Shown here piece by piece: positions 7,787-64,000 of a DNA stretch of 64,000 nucleotides. The translations under genes and the position numbers were made by a program. The first letter of the stretch is position 1; each line of letters begins with the position of its first letter. The stretch comes from Octopus vulgaris (taxonomy: Eukaryota): positions 60,760,001 to 60,824,000 of the forward strand of contig OX597828.1 in NCBI GenBank assembly GCA_951406725.2, given 5' to 3'. The notes below the pieces were generated by a model. The model saw only the letters and a list, made by a program, of their open reading frames with translations, was not told the DNA's origin and did not search any database.

Positions 7787-8115
7787 TATAAACAATTATA
7801 AATAAGGTCAAAAGAAAAAGAAATTTCCCTGCCAATATGCTGCAAAATAGACTTTAGATCGTCTGACCGCATACAACACCTTTCATCACAAATACACAGC
7901 GAGTCGAAACGAGGAAAGCAAGCCAACAGACACTCTAAAAAATTCGTTATCCCCGATTCGGATCGAAACTTTCTGTTGACTTGCTTTCCTCGTTTCGACA
8001 CGCTGTGTATTTGTGGTGAAAGGTGTTGTATGCGGTCAGACGATCTAAAGTCTATTTTGCAGCATATTCGCACAGAAAATGTTTTCTCTTTTGCCCTTAT
8101 TTATAATTGTTTATA
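7787..8115. repeat. Long inverted repeat (144-bp arms, 41-nt loop)
   Basis: 7787-7930 is the reverse complement of 7972-8115, at roughly 90% identity by eye. Confidence 0.9.
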
Positions 8116-24143: not shown

Positions 24144-24373
24144 GTTTCTTGGAGTATCCTCAGTGAGTACCCTGCATGGAGACACTTGCAATGAAGTACC
24201 TGGATTAGTGTGGAGGCAAATAGAAGTATGTCGTAACAATCCTCAGACACTCTATTGCATCAGTGAAGGCGCCAGGAAAGGAATTATGGAGTGCAAAGCA
24301 CAGTTTCGTTATGAACGTTGGAACTGTACAACCCAACGGAATCTGTCGGTGTTTGGACAAACTCTAACGAAAG
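24144..24373 (+). CDS. Wnt16: Wnt family ligand (Wnt16-like), internal coding exon
   Basis: Translates (x)FLGVSS..CNEVPGLVWRQIEVCRNNP..CISEGARKGIMECKAQFRYERWNCTT..FGQTLTK(G), a Wnt N-terminal signature (ECxxQFxxxRWNC). Acceptor tttgtag ends at 24143 and donor GTAACA starts at 24374. The phase-1 end matches the next exon. Confidence 0.9.
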
Positions 24374-25094
24374 GTAACATTACTTTCATTATCGTTAAAT
24401 CATCAGACAAAAATACCATGAGGCAATTACGGCTTTTTGCATCCTGAGGTCAAATCGTACTGGAGTCAACACTGATTTCAATCTTTCTGAGTCGATGAAC
24501 TAAATACTACTCAAATGCTGTTGTCAGTACTATCAACTAATCCCTCACACCCAAATTTCTAGGCTTGTGCCCCTGAAAGGAACCATTATTACATATAACT
24601 TCTCCGCAATCCTTCTGAACTTCTCTCCATTAATATCTTTTTAAAAACGTTCTTTATTTTGTTTTTTTTTCCTGTTTTCTTTAATGTCTATTATATTAAT
24701 TGAGTGAACGAATAATTAGTACCGGAATTTATTAATCATGGCACTCTCTAATGTAGTAAACTTTAAAACAATATAACATTTTAAACGGTTTCTTTTGGAC
24801 AGCGTCGGCAGCTTTCTTTGAATATGATTTGATAGGGTCAAAATGTCCTGCTTGGGTCCTGCTATCCGCGTATACAAGCACGTTCTGCCTTTATGGACGA
24901 AGTTGCGAAGTTTAGTGACATATTCGAAATAGGAATACCTTTAACTGTTTACCACCGCATTCAGTTTTCTACCTCTTCTTTTTTGTTTTCGATTTAGTAT
25001 TTCTTAAGTATTTCTTAAGTGTCAGTAAGCCTGATTAGAATTTTCACTTGATCTGTTGATTAATTAACATGTTGCCGCTCGCTTGTTTATTTGG

Positions 25095-25411: not shown

Positions 25412-25456
<45 letters not shown>

Positions 25457-25665
25457 TATGTGAAATAGAAAGATGAATAATCTTGTAGTAGATTAATCAA
25501 AAGTTTAACCGATACCTTAGTAGCAAAAATCACAGCAGTAAACAGCACGGTTGGAGGTACAACCATATGGTGTTGCAACCGTGCGTTGGTGCGGATAATT
25601 GAAATTAAAACATTATTGGTGAATTGAAGAAATGGAGCTGAACGCAGATTGAACAGAGATCGTTT

Positions 25666-25759
25666 TATTTCATTCTACACGTGTTTCGAAAGGCACAAAT
25701 TACCAAAATCCGATTGAATAATGGGACCATATTGTGTCTTTCTCTTCAGGAAGAAAATA
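25666..25759 (-). ncRNA. Mirror-copy hammerhead ribozyme motif
   Basis: Reverse complement of 25851-25944, in the left arm. Confidence 0.75.
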
Positions 25760-25850
25760 GGAAATCCGTTGGAAAAACAAAAACAGAACAGAGGCGGAGC
25801 AAAAACAAATCGAACTATGCTCCTAAGCATAGTTTTTCCAACGGATTTCC

Positions 25851-25944
25851 TATTTTCTTCCTGAAGAGAAAGACACAATATGGTCCCATTATTCAATCGG
25901 ATTTTGGTAATTTGTGCCTTTCGAAACACGTGTAGAATGAAATA
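25851..25944 (+). ncRNA. Type I hammerhead ribozyme motif (minimal palindromic stem III)
   Basis: Stem I TATTTTCTTC/GAATGAAATA, CTGAAGA 25861-25867, stem II GAAAGACACAA/TTGTGCCTTTC, GAAA 25923-25926, palindrome ACACGTGT, predicted GTA cleavage after 25934. Confidence 0.75.
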
Positions 25945-25994
25945 AAACGATTTCTGTTCAATCTGCGTTCAGCTCCATTTCTTCAATTCACCAA

Positions 25995-26083
<89 letters not shown>

Positions 26084-26100
26084 GTATATATATATATATG

Positions 26101-26132
<32 letters not shown>

Positions 26133-26350
26133 TATATGCCTGGGGTTAAACTAGTAGTACCATTCAACAGCCAATTTGATGTGACGACTGGCTTTACTGT
26201 TCAGTATAGTTTCTACTCTAGTCTCTTCATGAGATTTTACAACTCGCTATATTTGCTTGTTGCAAATCAGTGACCGATGGTCACTTTGTTTACAATATAT
26301 CGTTAGCTTGTTTACAATATATGTTTACAATATATCGTACGCTTTGGCGT

Positions 26351-26416
26351 AGGTGCTCCCGACTGAGGAGAGGCCAAATAGCTCGAAACCGAGCCAGTCT
26401 CGCGATCTTGATACCT
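26351..26416 (+). ncRNA. Type I hammerhead-like motif
   Basis: cccga-CTGAGGA (26363)-GAG..CTC-GAAA (26385)-C cgagcca G-TC (26399)-tcgcg. Stem I cga/tcg, with outer aggt/acct. Confidence 0.55.
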
Positions 26417-44866: not shown

Positions 44867-45250
44867 TGGATAATCACGTACTTATTAACAACTTTTGTTA
44901 TGTTTTTTGGGCTCAAGAAATTAAACTTCTTAACTGGGTTGTGAACACATTCTTGAATACATATTACCACAAAATTGTTAAAAGTTTTACAGCAGAAGAA
45001 ATTTTCTCTGGCGAGATTTCGACCGTGATGGAGAAATTATTATCATAGTAATGCCACTAACGTTTGACACACTTTCCTTTTAAACGAGCATTTTTTGTAA
45101 CTTGTACCTCAATGAACTTAACGCGTTATTTTTATATGCATTAAACTTATTAAGTTTGTTTATTTTAATTGTTGTTGTCGTGATGACTAGTCCGAAACAG
45201 AACTGTTTGCTTTGTCTTTATCATGATGCTGTTTTTGATTCTCCTTTCAG

Positions 45251-45525
45251 GAAGCAAAGAAACAGCTTTCATTTATGCTATTTTGAGCGCTGGCGTTGTA
45301 CACGCCGTGACCCAGTCCTGTAGTGCAGGCAATTTAACTGACTGTAGTTGTGACATGAACCGATATGGCGAAAAGGATGGTGAGGGCTGGGAATGGGGAG
45401 GATGCAGCGACAATATTCATTATGGCACCTGGTTCTGTAAGATGTTTGTGGATGCGCCCGATGCAAATTCCAAGCGTGACACACGTAACCTCATGAATAT
45501 TCACAATAATGAAGTCGGCAGAAGG
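45251..45525 (+). CDS. Wnt16: Wnt family ligand (Wnt16-like), next internal coding exon
   Basis: (G)SKETAFIYAILSAGVVHAVTQSCSAGNLTDCSCD..GWEWGGCSDNIHYG..F..FVD..RNLMNIHNNEVGRR. KETAFIYA, SCSAGN and EGWxWGGCSD are Wnt16-like. Acceptor ctcctttcag ends at 45250 and donor GTAAGT starts at 45526. The split codon G|GA joins in frame with the previous exon. Subfamily assigned from recalled motifs, not from a phylogeny. Confidence 0.9.
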
Positions 45526-54713: not shown

Positions 54714-54972
54714 TCTGTATAAGAATGTTAGGATGGTTAAGTTCAGGCTTATACTTTTCAATGAAGAATGTTTCCTTTTTTAATCTAATTTGTGTTGGTG
54801 TTCCAATAGCACATTGATAGAATGGAAAGATTAAAACTACTACCGCAATTTTTAATCTTTCCATTCTATCAATGTGCTATTGGAACACCAACACGAATTA
54901 GATTAAACAAGGAAACATTCTTCATTGAAAAGTATAAGCCTGAACTTAACCATCCTAACATTCTTATACAGA
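54714..54972. repeat. Inverted repeat (123-bp arms, 13-nt loop) containing a GIY-YIG endonuclease C-terminus (Penelope-like)
   Basis: 54714-54836 pairs with 54850-54972 with about 2 mismatches. The right arm reads FLIFPFYQCAIGTPTRIRLNKETFFIEKYKPELN. Confidence 0.85.
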
Positions 54973-56450: not shown

Positions 56451-56925
56451 GGCATTATTAAATCTTAGAACGAGATGTAAACAGTAATCGCTCGAAAATG
56501 TAATGTATAATAGCCATCTCAACATGGCTAACCACAAAGGGGGGGTGTTACTGTAGCTTTTTAGCCCCAGGAGATCATCGTCTCCAGCTGGCTTTAGGCA
56601 CACTATCTGTGCCCTTATAGTATTTGCAAAGGGAGACCATCCCTTTCTCGTAAGTCTAACTGATACGCACCGGACCGCAGTTTCGAGGTTATTGCCTCTT
56701 ATCAATGGGCTTTAGGCACACTATCTTTGAAAGGGATGGTCTCCCTTTGCAAATACCATAAGGGCACAGATAGTGTGCCTAAAGCCAGCTGGAGACGATG
56801 ATCTCCTGGGACTAAAAAGCTACAGTAACACCCCACTTTGTGGTTAGCCATATTGAGATGGCTATTATACTTTACATTGTCGAGCGATTACTTTTTACAT
56901 CTCTTTCTGAGATTTAATAATGCTT
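56451..56925. repeat. Inverted repeat (~197-bp arms, ~81-nt loop) with hammerhead remnant in the loop
   Basis: 56451-56647 pairs with 56729-56925. The loop on the minus strand reads tTGATAA-GAGG..CCTC-GAAA-C tgcg G-TC. Confidence 0.9.
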
Positions 56926-57019: not shown

Positions 57020-60000
57020 TTTAATTTTTCCTCGGAGTATAACAAATATTTTTCTGTTGCTGCAAATCGTTGTGTGAGTTCGTTTCCGTTTGTCTACTTT
57101 GTTGTGTTACACGTAATATAATTGTTGAACTGTTTTTGACCCAGTAATTTTCGCCCTTCGGGGTAGAAAATTTCTGTGTGTTTTTTTTGTGTGAACTCTT
57201 AACCTGTATAGGTTATTTTTGAAAAAAATTCTCTTGTCATTTGTGCCAAGTTTGTGTTGTCTAATATGGAATTAGACTTAAGTTCAAAAAAAAAGACTTT
57301 CCCAAGATGGGAGAAGGTATAACAACTGTTAAACAAAAGGAAACACAGGCAAAACCCAGTTTTTCAGACGCCGTAGGTGGCGAAGTGGAAGAAATGGAGG
57401 TGTCAATGGAAAGACTATTCAAGCTCAGACCGCTAGTGCAAAAAAGTGGTGAAGAAACACGATTGGTACCGCCCCCTGAGACTATACAGGCAATAAGGGA
57501 AAAAATGGTCACCTATAAGGTGTACAACATAAAAGAAAAACGAATGACCGACGTAAAAAACGAAATGGTCGAAAAGTGTATGGCACCAATATGGAGTAAA
57601 GTTAGTCATGTCAACCGAGGTGCAAGAAGCGCTACAGTGGAGGCGCATTTTGAGACGGCGGAAGAAGCAAGGCAAATTTCGACGCAAACGTTGAAAAACG
57701 AGAATATAATACTGTTACCCTTATATATGGGGTGCAGAACAGCAAAAGTGACAATGGAAGATATACCAAGGGGCTACGACGTGATGTGGGCGGCAACAGC
57801 GGTCATTTTTGATGTTGAATCAAAATTGACAATTTTGAGTATGAAGAGGAAAATTGCAAAACACTGGAGAGGTCAGCAGCTGGAGATGATCATCCAGGCG
57901 GAAAATGCAACGCTGGAAAGCCTACCAGAGTCTTCGTGGGGGAGGGGCACTCCATACGAGTTTCGGTGGAAGGACGCAGGCCCAGATGTTTTAAGTGCGG
58001 GCAAAAGGGCCACGTGCACTCCGTTTGCACAAAAAAAAATAATACGGGCAACGCCCCCCTCCCCCACAAAACGCTGTGAAGAACGCAGAAAGCAGCAAAG
58101 TGGAGAACAAAGCAAGGAAGAAAAAAAAACAGGTCGAACTCCAAAAAGGAGGAAGACAAGAACGGAAGGCAAAATGAGAAAGGAAAGGAGGAGGAAATTA
58201 ATACAACAAAAACAAATATACAAGAAAAGATGGGTTTCACGAACGTGTCAAACAAAAGAAAGAATCCATCACCCCTGACTCCCCACCCGTAACAAAAAAA
58301 AAATAACACAGACGAACAAATTAAAAATATTCTCCATTCCCACCCCGGCGGTACTACATTTATAGGCCAGCACTTTAACAAACCCCACCCCCCAACTGTA
58401 AAAGGGTTTAAACCCAACGAAAAAATTATAACATACACCACAAGGAACGAGAGAGTAGTAAGATTTGTGCAAGCAAGTCCGCAGATCAGGTGCTACAAAG
58501 CGACCGAGAAGGAAGCGGAGTGGCGATATGCAAGGGTCGGCGAAGAAGGATGGAAAGAAAAAAACTTACAAGACCACGTAAAAGTCGGCTTCATCAAGGA
58601 TGTCACCCAGGAGGTGAAAACTGGGAAATTATACGTCAGCCCGGCAGCCACACCAACACAGAGCCCGGTGGCAACGCCGGTGAAACGCCCAGCAGCAACG
58701 GCGAGTGGGGGAGGGGAGACAGGCAGAAGGAATCTGTCAGGCTCCCTCTCGCAACCGTGAGTAAACAATTTTCATTTTTCGATGATTAAGTTAGGTTGTA
58801 TAAATGTGCGTGGAATGGGGTCGAAATGGAAACAGGCTTGTTTTCGGGACGACCTCATTTCACATAGAATCGATGTAGCTATTGTTACCGAGTCCAAGAT
58901 GAAAGGACCCCAAGCGTTCTCACCACTTCTCAATGGTTACGAGAAATTTATTTCTCCTAGCCGGGGGGGAGGTGCAGGCGTGGCAGTTCTTTTCAGGAAG
59001 AACTTGGACTTACAGGTAAGTACTGTCTTTCTGGACCCAGAAGGTAGGCTGGTTGTCCTAGATGTGACGCACGCGAGTAAGCAGTCCTTCAGGTTGGTGG
59101 CTGTCTACGCTCCTAATGGACGTGGGCAGACCGGTTTTTTTCGGGAACTGGAGCACTTTCTAGTGACGTCCAAAACGGTAGTCTTGGTAGGGGGTTTCAA
59201 CACCATTCTCGATGCGCGGGTGGATGGTGTAGGCTCGAGCGATAGGAAGGGGAATCCTGGCCTCAAGGCTCTACTAGCGAGCTTTTATCTAGTAGACCGT
59301 TTTCGACTGGATGAGCCGAACGTTCCACAGTGGACGTGGAGTAATAACGACGGCTCACGCAGATCGTACATAGATAGAGTATTCGTTAAGGAACGAGATA
59401 AGAATAGTGTTAGCTGTCCACAATTCTCTGTTGTGCCTTACACGGATCACAAACTTGTGACCTGTGAGGTACAAGTAGATAAATGCCATAGACAAGGTCC
59501 CGGGTACTGGAAAATGAACAAGCCTATTTTGACTTGTGAAGCTTTCCGTACCCGGATTAAGGAATTAGTACAGAGGGCATTATGTGGCACCATCATTAAT
59601 AATAGATGGTGGCTCGTCCTCAAAAGAGCCATCCGTTTGGAGTCCATTAGATTTAGCAAGCAGCTAAGTTTAGATAGGACTAGAATAGAGGGCGAATTAG
59701 TTAAGAACTTAGACGAGGCTATGGAATCTGGCTGTGCATCCGGAGTGTTGGCAGCGAGAGCAGTATTGTACCGTCACCTCAACGCCAAGCACGAGGGGTG
59801 TAGAGTCAGAGCTAAGTTACGTGCAGGAAAACGAGAAGGTATTAACGTTGCCGGATGAGCCCGTCGTGAGGAGAGTCAGAAGGGCAAAAAGTCCTGTATT
59901 ATGTCCTTAACTAACGAGCAGGACCGCAAGATCTATGGAGAGGTGGAGATGCAGAAGGTCCTTCACCAGCATTTCGCACGGCTGTTTGGGGACGGTGGTC

Positions 60001-62473
60001 CGCTCGAGCGAGGGGAGACCTTAAAGGACTTCCTAGCCGGTGGGCCTCGATCTCTCCCGCGGAGGTAAGAGGGGTTTTGGCCGAGTGCGCCGGGGAAAAG
60101 TCGCCGGGGTTGGATGGTCTGCCCTATGAATTTTATTGTTGTATGCCGGACTTGTTCGGGAACATACTGGCAAGCGTCTATGCAAACTGGCAACAGAATG
60201 GGAGGATTCCCAGCTCTGTGAGTCGGGGAGTTGTGACGCTGGTCTAGAAAGACCCCAGCAAGGGGGACAGTATTAGTAATTACAGGCCCATAACTCTACT
60301 TAATGTAGAGTTTAAGATTTTGGCCAAGGTGTTAGCAAAAAGGTTGACGGCTGTCGTGGAGAAACTTGTCGGGAAGGTACAGACATGTGCAATCCCAGGC
60401 AGGTCGATCCAGGATAATCTTCACCTTCTCCGCTACACTATAGATAGGATCGGGAAATTAGACGGCAAAGGAGGGGCATTGGTCCATTTAGACCAAAGTA
60501 AAGCGTTTGATAGGGTAGACCATCGGTACTTGGCGGCGGTCCTCGAAGCGGCTGGGCTGGGCCCTGGCTTCTGCGGGGGGATCTCAGCTATGTACAGCGG
60601 CATCAAGTCCACAGTCCAGATAAACGGTTACATAACGGAGCCGTTTTCGATCAAGCGTTCAGTTCGTCAAGGGTGCCCCTTGTCCCCGCTCCTGTATGTT
60701 TTGGCTCTCGAGCCATTGCTACGGAAGCTGGAGAATTTGGGAGGCAACCCTAATGAAATCGGATGCGGTAAGTCTGTTTCTGCCTATGCGGATGACGTCA
60801 CCCTCATCGTGTCCAACGGAACACAGCTACCTCGGGTAGCAGGTGCTCTCCATAGATACGAAGCGGTGGCAGGGGCAAAAGTTAACAAGGACAAATCCAT
60901 CGGTTTGCGCCTCGGCACCTGGAGGAACAAGCCGATACCGTCCAGTGTTGTTTGACACTGGACGGATGGTCCTGTTAAATTGCTCGGAGTCTGGTTTGGT
61001 CCAGACTCCCAGACGGAGAAGAATTGGAGCGAGGTAACGAGCAAGGTGGATGCCATAGTACGGACGTGGTCCGGAAGGCATCTTTCCTTGAAAGGGAGGG
61101 CGGAGGTGGCACAGATGTTTATAGCCTCTGTCGTCACCTACCGCCTGACCGTCGTGCCTTGCCCCGATTCGTGGTTAAATAAGTTGGAACGACTCCTTTT
61201 CCGCTTTTTGTGGAAAGGAGGAAAGCCACTTGTGAGACGCTCCGTGTGTTGCCAGGAACCGCTAAAGGGTGGACTGGGGATGCCTTGGCTAATGATGCGC
61301 AAGCATGCGTTGAGGCTGAGACACCTCTGGTGTTACCTGGAGGATGATAAGGTGTGGAGTTCGCTGGCAGAGGAATTCTTCCCGCGACCGGCCTCTATGG
61401 AGGGATTTACACCCGGTCTCATTAAAGGACGTAACCTGACTTCATGGCAGAAGGAGTGCCGACAGGCACTCTGGCTGATCCACAAGATGGGCAAGGCCGG
61501 CAGCGGGAATACCACCTCGGTGTTCTATAAAGGGCTGGTAGAGGGAAAAAATGACGACGTCCTAGGAAGGGCTCTGGGGTTCGATGAGGATCAACTCTCC
61601 AACCTGTTTAAGAAGACTTTCAGGCCGGGGTATTTGGATACTTACCAAAAATCCCTGACCAGGCAGTGCTATAGGAATGCATTACCTGTTCGCGAGAAGT
61701 TATCCAGGCACGGAATGTCAGTGTCACCGACGTGTCCAAGATGTGGGTTGGACGATGAAACCGTTCAACACGCTTTTGTACGATGTCGGGAGCTGTCAGG
61801 CTTGATAAGTTACGTGGAACACGTGTTGTCGCATCTGGGACGAGTACAGCTGTCGGCTGGATCTATGATTAAGATGATACCGCCAACTGGACTCTCAAAG
61901 GAAGGTAAGGCTTGTTTTTACTGTACGGTGGCAGTATTGAAAGAGTGTGTATGGAGAACTAGAATGGAAGGTCTTGTGAAAGGGTCCTTTATCTCTGGCC
62001 CCGGTTTGTTAAAATACTTCGGATATCATCTGAAGAGCAAGATGGGGTTGGAGAAGAGGAGCCTGCCACAGAAAGAGTATATGGAACGTTGGAAGGATGT
62101 GATGAGGAAGGTGGGTGAGAGTAACCCAGCTTAATCATCGAGGAAAGGAAAAGTCAGCTGCTGGGATTTATAGGCTGCCGGGTTCAAAATTGAAACTGGT
62201 ACCTCCCATTCCTTTTCACTGTACATAACTGTGTAAAATAAAGAAATTAAAAAAAAAAGAAAACATACGCACTAAAAGTTCTCGTGATAAAGGTAAAAGT
62301 AAGCCAAGGTTTCGTTTCAAGGCAAAGTAAGCCAAGTTTTCGTTCAAGTTACATAAAATTTTATTTTTGTAAATTTTTATAATTTCATTCGAACTCGCAT
62401 AGCATTTTTGTAATTGTTTTGTCCTGTAATGTCCCAATTCTATGTTAGATCACTTGATCATAATAAAGATAAA
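57020..62473 (+). mobile_element. Full-length defective L1/Tx1-like LINE (copy 1)
   Basis: ORF1 about 57266-58760 with CFKCGQKGHVHSVC knuckle (frameshifted). ORF2 58782-62134 has APE (NVRG, VYAP, GGFN, IDR, TDH), RT (LDQSKAFDRV, RQGCPLSP, YADD) and CPRC..ETVQHAFVRC. AATAAA at 62462. Flanked by a 21-bp direct repeat. Confidence 0.93.
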
Positions 62474-62494: not shown

Positions 62495-64000
62495 GACTCG
62501 TCTAGGGACCCCTCTTTCATCTGCGTATTGAGAAGTTAGCTGCCTATTTTGTTGAGTGAGTTCGTTTTTTGTTCGTCGTCGTTTGTGTTTGCTCGTGAAT
62601 TGAACAGTTATCCGTTGTGTGACAGTAATTTTTGCCCTACAGGGCTGAAAATTCTGTGTATAAACATTGTTATTACCTTCGGGGTAATTTTTTTTGAAAA
62701 ATTGGTTCTCATAATTTGAGAAATGGAGTTCGACTTGGCGTCGAGGAGCGACTTTCCCGTGATGGGAAAAGGCGAACAGAAGGATATCGAGGTTAGAAAA
62801 CAGTCTTTTTCGGCCGCAGTGGGCGGAACCGTAACGGAAGTGGAATTCAAAATAGAACAGTTGTTCGAATACCGGAACTTGGTCAAAAAGGAAGGCAACG
62901 AAATAAAACTGGTACCGCCGCAAGCGATATTACAGGAAATAAAGGCCAAGACAGTTGTATACAAGGTTTACAGTAACAAAGAGAAAAAAATAATGGACGT
63001 GAAGAACGAAATAGTAGAGAAGTGCTTGTCCCCGGTGTGGAACAAAATTCGCTACGTCGGTCGAGGTGCCCGCAGCGCTACCGTTGAAGCACATTTCGAC
63101 TCGGCTGATGTGGCAAGAGAGATTTCATCGATGACCTTAAAAAGTGAGGACATCATGTTACTACCTACCTATATGGGAAAAAGAACTGCGAAACTATATG
63201 TGGAAGACTTTCCAAGAGGATATGATATAATGTGGGTAGCAGCGGCGGTTCTGCACGACGTAGAGCAGAAAGTCTCAATTCTGCAGATGAAAAGGAAAGA
63301 GGAGGTAAACTGGAAGGGACAAGCGCTCGACTCCTCGTTCAAGCAGAAAATAATGTGCTAGAAAACTTACCCGATAGGGTATTTATTGAGGAGGGAATTA
63401 CAATCAGAGTGTCAGTGGAGGGGCGCAGACTTAGGTGTTTCAAATGTGGTGAAAAGGGTCACGTCCGCTCGAACTGCATAAAAAAAAAAGAAAAACAGCG
63501 AAGCCCCTCCTCAAAGTGCTTCAAACACAGAAAAAGAAAAGGCGGAAAAAGACCCCAAGACTGCGACAAGGAAGGGAATCGAAACGGAAGATAAACATGA
63601 ACAAATGGAATTTACACAGGTGACACACAAAAAGAAAAAAGAAAATACCCTGGACTCCCCTCCCCAAACAAAGAAAAAAATCAGCAAACACCGCAGAGAT
63701 ACATACAAAACAAATTCCCCAGCCCTACCCCCACGGCACTGTATTCATTGGAACACAGTTCGCCAAGCCCCTCCCCATAAAACAAGATTGGAAAAAATTG
63801 ATTAAAAAAAATGAAAAGATTGTAGCATTCGACGAGAGGAACGATAGAGTGTTTAAGTATTTAAAATTTTCAAAACTGAAATTATTCCGTAAGTCTGCAG
63901 ACACTAAGTCGACGACTCGTTTTGCAAAAATAAAGGAAGACGAGTGGAAGGAAAAAACACTCCAAGAACATTTAAAAATTAACCTTATCAGAGACGTAAC
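62495..64000 (+). mobile_element. Second L1/Tx1-like LINE (5' UTR and ORF1, runs off the window)
   Basis: ORF1 from 62723 is paralogous to copy 1 (VVYKVY..EKCL..RGARSATVEAHF, CFKCGEKGHVRSNC). Frameshifted. Confidence 0.9.

Follow-up and report, generated by a model that had tools for sequence, protein, structure and literature searches.

Layout of the insertion in the Wnt intron

The window, the whole 64-kb stretch of octopus DNA analyzed here, carries part of a Wnt-family gene on the plus strand. The Pfam-matched part of the upstream coding exon lies at 24193..24373, with a donor GT at 24374, and the next coding exon lies at 45251..45525, behind an acceptor AG that ends at 45250. These exons match Pfam wnt 2-61 and 63-146, respectively, and the intron between them, with its GT and AG ends read, is 24374-45250. 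The intron contains a 540-nt insertion (25459..25998) comprised of two 5'-truncated copies of an apparent Hydra-type Penelope-like element (PLE), joined head-to-head within a (TA)n target whose left part lies at 25416..25458 and whose right part lies at 25999..26137.

In element coordinates, where 0 is the 3' end of the element, the main arm (25459..25827, minus strand) is the last 369 nt (-368 to 0), and the inverted arm (25832..25998, plus strand) is -319 to -153. They meet at a junction (25826..25834, plus strand) of 9 nt templated from element -362 to -354, with a 2- to 3-nt overlap with each arm. Only the main arm carries the 3' tail of ~150 nt (here 153 nt; 25459..25611, minus strand). 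The inverted repeat is formed by 25612-25778 and 25832-25998, each 167 nt, with one mismatch (25658/25952) and a 53-nt spacer; this spacer, the hairpin loop (25779..25831), consists of the junction and the 5' portion of the main arm that stays unpaired. The original prediction of 167-nt arms with one mismatch inside a Wnt intron was thus borne out by the inverted-repeat coordinates and the flanking Wnt exons. It had presented the whole of 25459..25998 as self-complementary; this stands for the inverted repeat, but the first 153 nt, although part of the same element, are present in one arm only. A recent origin, also proposed, is supported by the identity of the main and inverted arms (99.7% and 100%, respectively) to L031, a full-length copy whose ORF is intact.

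Each arm of the inverted repeat carries a type I hammerhead motif. That of the left arm (25612..25778) is at 25666..25759, sense on the minus strand and antisense in the Wnt transcript, with its core at 25749-25743 and a predicted cut at 25676/25675. Its mirror on the plus strand, in Wnt sense, is at 25851..25944. Here stem I pairs 25851-25860 with 25935-25944 (10 positions, of which one is a mismatch and another a wobble), followed by CUGAAGA (25861-25867), a stem II region of 55 nt (25868-25922), GAAA (25923-25926), and the palindrome ACACGUGU (25926-25933) before GUA, with a predicted cut at 25934/25935. The arm motif shows the type I core pattern (CUGANGA, GAAA, UH, and three helices), and in the element the core sits 291 nt from the 3' end, within the pLTR. 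A 26-nt word from the core has 1,823 exact copies in the genome and its reversed control has 0, so the motif is not a chance occurrence.

The motif had been described as a complete hammerhead on each arm, to be checked by a covariance-model search. Rfam returned no hammerhead at either arm at the gathering score, which nothing in the window reached, or at E<=10, probably because of the long helix II. At the latter threshold there were just generic miRNA-hairpin matches across the palindrome, which we dismissed as shape matches. The isolated arm folded no better than shuffled sequences (z -0.49). Given these two results, "complete hammerhead" is read here as a motif with predicted stems, and that part of the claim stands. 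For covariation, 130 copies fell into 48 variants that are 85-100% alike; the family is young, with too little variation in the helices. Helix III is predicted to have 2 pairs in the monomer, whereas in a dimer the palindrome is predicted to form an 8-bp self-duplex (-10.3 kcal/mol). The earlier assignment to the dimer-dependent hammerheads of PLEs was accordingly judged right.

A second type I hammerhead motif, with CUGAGGA at 26363 and a GUC site, was found at 26349-26411 on the plus strand, in Wnt sense and with no antisense partner. It scored 20.1 bits against Rfam Hammerhead_1 (cutoff, 34) and has a stem I mismatch. It belongs to an older repeat unrelated to the PLE insertion (578 candidates at ~75% identity), in which a CUGAGGA/CUGACGA core was present in 5/12 loci.

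Long foldbacks are common in the window. Three other hairpin-type inverted repeats (7787-8115, 54714-54972, and 56537-56839), unrelated to the PLE insertion, have arms of 111-144 nt that are 92-98% complementary. The segment at 57265-62131 (plus strand) is, we take it, a nearly intact non-LTR retrotransposon with ORF1-like, endonuclease, and RT frames and few breaks; it is followed at 62720-64000 by what is presumably a second ORF1-like copy.

The element family and its two-arm insertions

A genome search with the 540 nt (2.8 Gb, 227 contigs) gave 1,630 candidates. Among the 40 that were scored, 16 match nearly the whole query and 24 match its first 369 nt at 99-100%. A 24-nt word from the tail has 1,574 exact copies, compared with 0 for its control. 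In the full-length copy L031, the unit spans 3,626 nt and its ORF encodes 895 aa; it is accompanied by a partial copy in tandem and by a truncated copy inverted upstream of it, and the whole lies in (TA)n. Tandem pLTRs, inverted copies truncated at the 5' end, and tails confined to one end all occur in the family. Intact 895-aa ORFs numbered 4, at 3 loci, among the regions fetched.

Pfam and PDB sequence searches with the ORF and its alignment returned nothing relevant. The predicted structure of the ORF (mean pLDDT, 71.6) has telomerase RTs as its top three structural matches (E 2e-9). At the C terminus is a GIY-YIG core (VYQC..YVG) whose R, H, E, and N align to homologs and to published Hydra rows; in the nearest Atlas clusters, GIY-YIG (PF01541) occurs in 26-50% of members where shown. 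Further marks of the Hydra clade are RW(L), DKT, CxxC-E..N-CxH, no CCHH, and no CxxC inside the GIY-YIG core. The linker CxCX5C knuckle was absent from all 9 ORF pieces spanning the linker, which has one Cys in 154-163 aa, whereas CxC is kept in 10/11 aligned homologs; the octopus ORF has a 154-aa low-complexity stretch in its place. Comparing these motifs by eye with the published rows, we classify the element as Hydra-type Penelope-like and, because the linker CxCX5C is missing, do not file it as a typical member.

In the ORF of the full-length copy (L031:3591-6290, minus strand) the stretch that replaces the linker zinc knuckle is N/S/G-rich and disordered. Nearly all loci viewed have a TA run after the 3' end, and the family still inserts in (TA)n despite the loss of a knuckle that has been proposed to direct (TA)n targeting. 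These features bear on the proposal that the linker sets target choice. One copy of the family is adjoined by a 629-aa ORF with a DKT motif (L082:725, minus strand) that belongs to another Penelope-like family.

The first 100 core matches fall at 70 loci. Neighboring pairs were divergent in 24 cases and convergent in 0, at spacings of 62-5,416 nt. An unselected census covered the first 118 Mb of contig C1, where the exact tail word has 63 matches at 60 consecutive loci; an inverted arm was counted by script if adjacent and at least 22 nt long. Such an arm was present at 43/60 loci. Its 3' end fell at -147 to -167, never at 0 and never with a tail. No inverted arm was called by script at the other 17 loci, one of which (L070) shows one by eye. 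The arms meet with an overlap of 1-8 nt at 29 of the 43 loci, bluntly at 2, and with inserted bases at 12, and arm lengths range from ~30 nt to 3.6 kb. The two-arm layout is the normal insertion product of this family. A whole hammerhead on both arms was found at 18/60 loci, from which, together with the core matches, we estimated ~400-450 double-hammerhead cassettes in the genome.

Arm divergence was determined for 60 loci whose two arms overlap by 60 nt or more, a set partly different from the census that includes loci selected by similarity. Arms within a locus differed by 0.5% on average and copies at different loci by 2.5%, with the within-locus value lower in 57/60 cases; the value for the window is 0.6%. 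The same allele at diagnostic site -256 was shared in 50/51 arm pairs.

Palindromes this close to perfect, flanked by simple repeats, typically cause trouble, and the locus could in principle be an assembly or long-read fold-back artefact. We consider this highly improbable in view of the asymmetric fixed ends, the one private mismatch, the templated junction, and the regularity across the family. Moreover, short-read contigs from public runs contain head-to-head joints as well as (TA)n attached at 25606-25610, which corresponds to the -150 end; the pattern is thus seen outside this assembly too. No listed contig of public runs X1, X2, and X6 spans the junction 25827/25832, a gap in cover that proves nothing. 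It is similarly hard to credit that the 540-nt hairpin moves as a unit, be it a non-autonomous foldback element or a retrozyme. The 16 places that match nearly the whole hairpin would fit such a unit, but their breakpoints differ, the ranking of the search favors sequences like the query, and arms in the family vary across the whole range given above. Tandem monomer arrays like those of retrozymes, with short head-to-tail units each bearing a hammerhead, were not seen; the tandem copies seen are 3.6-kb units with the ORF.

The arms have fixed 3' ends, one at 0 and one at ~ -150, whereas their 5' breakpoints are independent and the junctions vary. An inverted arm lacking the last ~150 nt, together with variants common to both arms, suggests that one RNA source was copied twice from two start sites. 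Conversion between the arms could likewise account for these variants. In the mechanism that we propose, the GIY-YIG nuclease of the element would nick both strands of (TA)n, and the two resulting 3' ends would each prime reverse transcription of RNA from a single source, with one start at the end of the element and the second ~150 nt internal to it. Both cDNAs would stop early and be joined via 1-8 nt of microhomology or short templated inserts. This proposal extends an in vitro result for an Anolis PLE in which, according to the available text, two internal RT start sites delimit the tail and both target strands are cut and extended (Frangieh 2024, PMC11167929). Within our best explanation of the cassette, we hold this double target-primed route to be reasonably probable.

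The priming step could also differ: the same family might produce the inverted arm by fold-back self-priming, as proposed in the part of Arkhipova 2013 (PMC3846280) available to us. The variants shared by the arms would be expected under that reading, and the junction in the window (-368/-362, with 35 nt deleted) is close to symmetric. In addition, the 5' stops lie within 10 nt of each other in 11/43 pairs (permutation mean, 2.0; 0/20,000 permutations reached 11). However, these symmetric pairs fit run-off from one broken RNA or later trimming of the palindrome as well as they fit self-priming. There is no regular nesting of one arm within the other: at 24/43 loci the tail-less arm extends past the tailed arm on the 5' side by more than 10 nt, and at 8/43 the tailed arm extends past the tail-less one. 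The arms of 10/43 pairs, moreover, have no overlap on the template. A simple fold-back would not give these results, and we regard self-priming as unlikely, though far from negligible.

Other candidate influences on the arm ends were considered. Several breakpoints hinted at a transcript start or strong stop at ~ -384, but counts of exact words are level on either side (541 versus 536). In vivo cleavage footprints are likewise unsupported, with 2/86 arm ends within -214 to -218 of the cut. Hammerhead dimerization was ruled out as the cause of inverted arms, since Naiads without canonical hammerheads also have them (PMC8557442, available part). The 5' ends of arms were somewhat enriched over the hammerhead (-200 to -239; census loci L045-L116), as if RT stalls at the fold. 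The count was 17/52, or 12/42 after symmetric pairs were merged, and is not significant (p ~0.09 after correction for 7 windows).

To the full picture we would give a little less than even credence. It holds that one RNA is copied twice from fixed starts ~150 nt apart, primed by different nicked (TA)n strands, to give mostly asymmetric head-to-head hairpins; that this is done by an element with no linker zinc knuckle; and that several hundred near-perfect double-hammerhead dsRNA hairpins have thereby been seeded in a heavily RNA-editing genome.

The hammerhead in the Wnt pre-mRNA

The arm order bears out the earlier statement that the antisense arm is met first on the Wnt (plus) strand. The geometry is always divergent, so the same holds for any transcript through any two-armed copy, on both strands. 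The hairpin (25606-26004) is predicted to fold at -302 kcal/mol, and forcing the catalytic core is predicted to cost 126 kcal/mol in the hairpin, 6.8 kcal/mol in the whole arm, and 2.9 kcal/mol in the minimal arm. Sequestration of the ribozyme by the antisense arm therefore holds up as a prediction, and on these folding models it is credible in the Wnt pre-mRNA. Pairing of the arms would give a duplex of 167 bp in which the ribozyme stays unfolded, and this duplex is a potential ADAR substrate.

The hammerhead would be expected to do its job where the element is transcribed in tandem, so that two same-sense copies could pair their palindromic helix III. An array of three full 3.6-kb units and a partial one, arranged head to tail with two intact ORFs (L043/L044, G000:C1:119.51-119.53 Mb), offers a setting in which dimers of same-sense hammerheads could form. 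No second same-sense copy of the family was found within the window. Since stem III of the monomer has just 2 pairs and no such partner is present there, the lone motif is likely a weak cutter with little cleavage to prevent. In the available text of Cervera and De la Pena 2014 (PMC4209133), single min-HHR motifs did not cleave in vitro and dimers cleaved poorly, and the Anolis ribozyme required protein in that of Frangieh 2024 (PMC11167929).

It was further suggested that the cassette protects the intron and that unwinding or editing of the duplex could release the ribozyme. A purposeful Wnt cassette is not supported by the family data, in which the layout is the usual insertion product and neighboring pairs are divergent, never convergent; the antisense arm would come first in all such insertions, whether inside genes or outside them. 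Release by editing fares no better, because A-to-I changes would strike the conserved core adenosines, and we infer that damage is more likely than release. Five core adenosines are conserved in hammerheads; as an illustration, if 30% editing is assumed per site, 17% of molecules keep all five.

A co-opted, regulated ribozyme switch, with the antisense arm shielding the Wnt pre-mRNA until unwinding or editing releases cleavage, is consistent with the arm order and the predicted sequestration. It also fits the wide editing of repeat-derived RNA in introns and 3' UTRs of cephalopods (Albertin 2022, as far as available). Nevertheless, we judge it very unlikely. Whole hammerheads on both arms are a regular outcome in the consecutive census, and the near identity of this copy to an intact element, with an arm divergence at the family average, gives no sign of long retention. 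The published failure of single motifs to cleave also speaks against it, as does the unshielded, decayed same-sense hammerhead of another family 430 nt downstream in the same intron. The cassette is very probably a recent 5'-truncated insertion of a Hydra-type PLE in (TA)n, made of two head-to-head 3' ends, with a self-complementarity that is likely a by-product of integration and would have no selected role in Wnt. Co-option at a later stage would be compatible with a neutral origin. For the regulation of Wnt the cassette is most likely unimportant, being one of an estimated several hundred of its kind.

Comparison with known elements

The statements below on published systems refer to the available parts of the papers cited. 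The layout itself is already known, since PLE copies that are inverted and truncated, with a hammerhead on each strand, have been described (PMC8557442, PMC4209133). Inverted 5'-truncated copies with a tail at one end are standard for PLEs (Craig 2021, Fig. 2 legend, PMC8557442); Penelope-13_HM has such a copy with a hammerhead on each strand (Craig 2021, PMC8557442), and dual hammerhead motifs lie 100-700 bp apart on opposite strands in Schistosoma (Cervera and De la Pena 2014, PMC4209133).

Like the EN+ PLEs of the Hydra clade (Craig 2021, PMC8557442; e.g., Hydra-1_Obim and Penelope-13_HM), the octopus element has a C-terminal GIY-YIG, RW, and DKT, and no CCHH. CxxC and CxH around E and N, the (TA)n target, and a type I hammerhead near the 3' end are common to both (PMC8557442). 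It departs from the described Hydra elements, which are generally under 3 kb (PMC8557442), in its 3.6-kb unit with an 895-aa ORF and in its tail of ~150 nt, compared with a published 30-40 nt. It further differs in having a 154-aa low-complexity stretch instead of the CxCX5C linker Zn knuckle and more than 1,500 young copies (PMC8557442). It is distinct from the published Hydra-1_Obim, which is 2,507 bp long and has a different, short hammerhead (PMC8557442), in contrast to the 55-nt helix II region of the octopus motif. With the minimal hammerheads of PLEs (PMC4209133) this motif shares a type I core, an unstable palindromic helix III, and a predicted dimer requirement, but its predicted form has a much longer helix II, a 10-bp helix I, and a GUA site.

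PAc Poseidon of Anolis (PMC11167929) is similar in its hammerhead near the pLTR-ORF junction, its AT-rich target, and its two-site tail. That tail is 30-40 nt long and lies inside the ORF, whereas the octopus tail, of ~150 nt, ends 48 nt before the ATG; in the available text on the Anolis element, the two start sites are not linked to inverted arms. The Penelope elements of Adineta vaga (Arkhipova 2013, PMC3846280) likewise have head-to-head inverted pLTRs, a tail on one end, microhomology joins, and N-rich inserts between RT and EN; they have a low copy number and a 31-bp tail and were accounted for by self-priming with an antisense template. Metazoan non-LTR retrozymes (bioRxiv 10.64898/2026.07.22.740005) are also short, non-coding, PLE-related sequences with a type I hammerhead, but they consist of head-to-tail tandem units, whereas the cassette consists of the head-to-head truncated ends of an autonomous element.

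Against this background, the octopus family offers a test case for the inverted ends of PLEs, with its more than 1,500 near-identical copies, intact sources, long tail, and strict rule of a tail on one arm. With it, the competing models for such ends become testable both in silico and in vitro.
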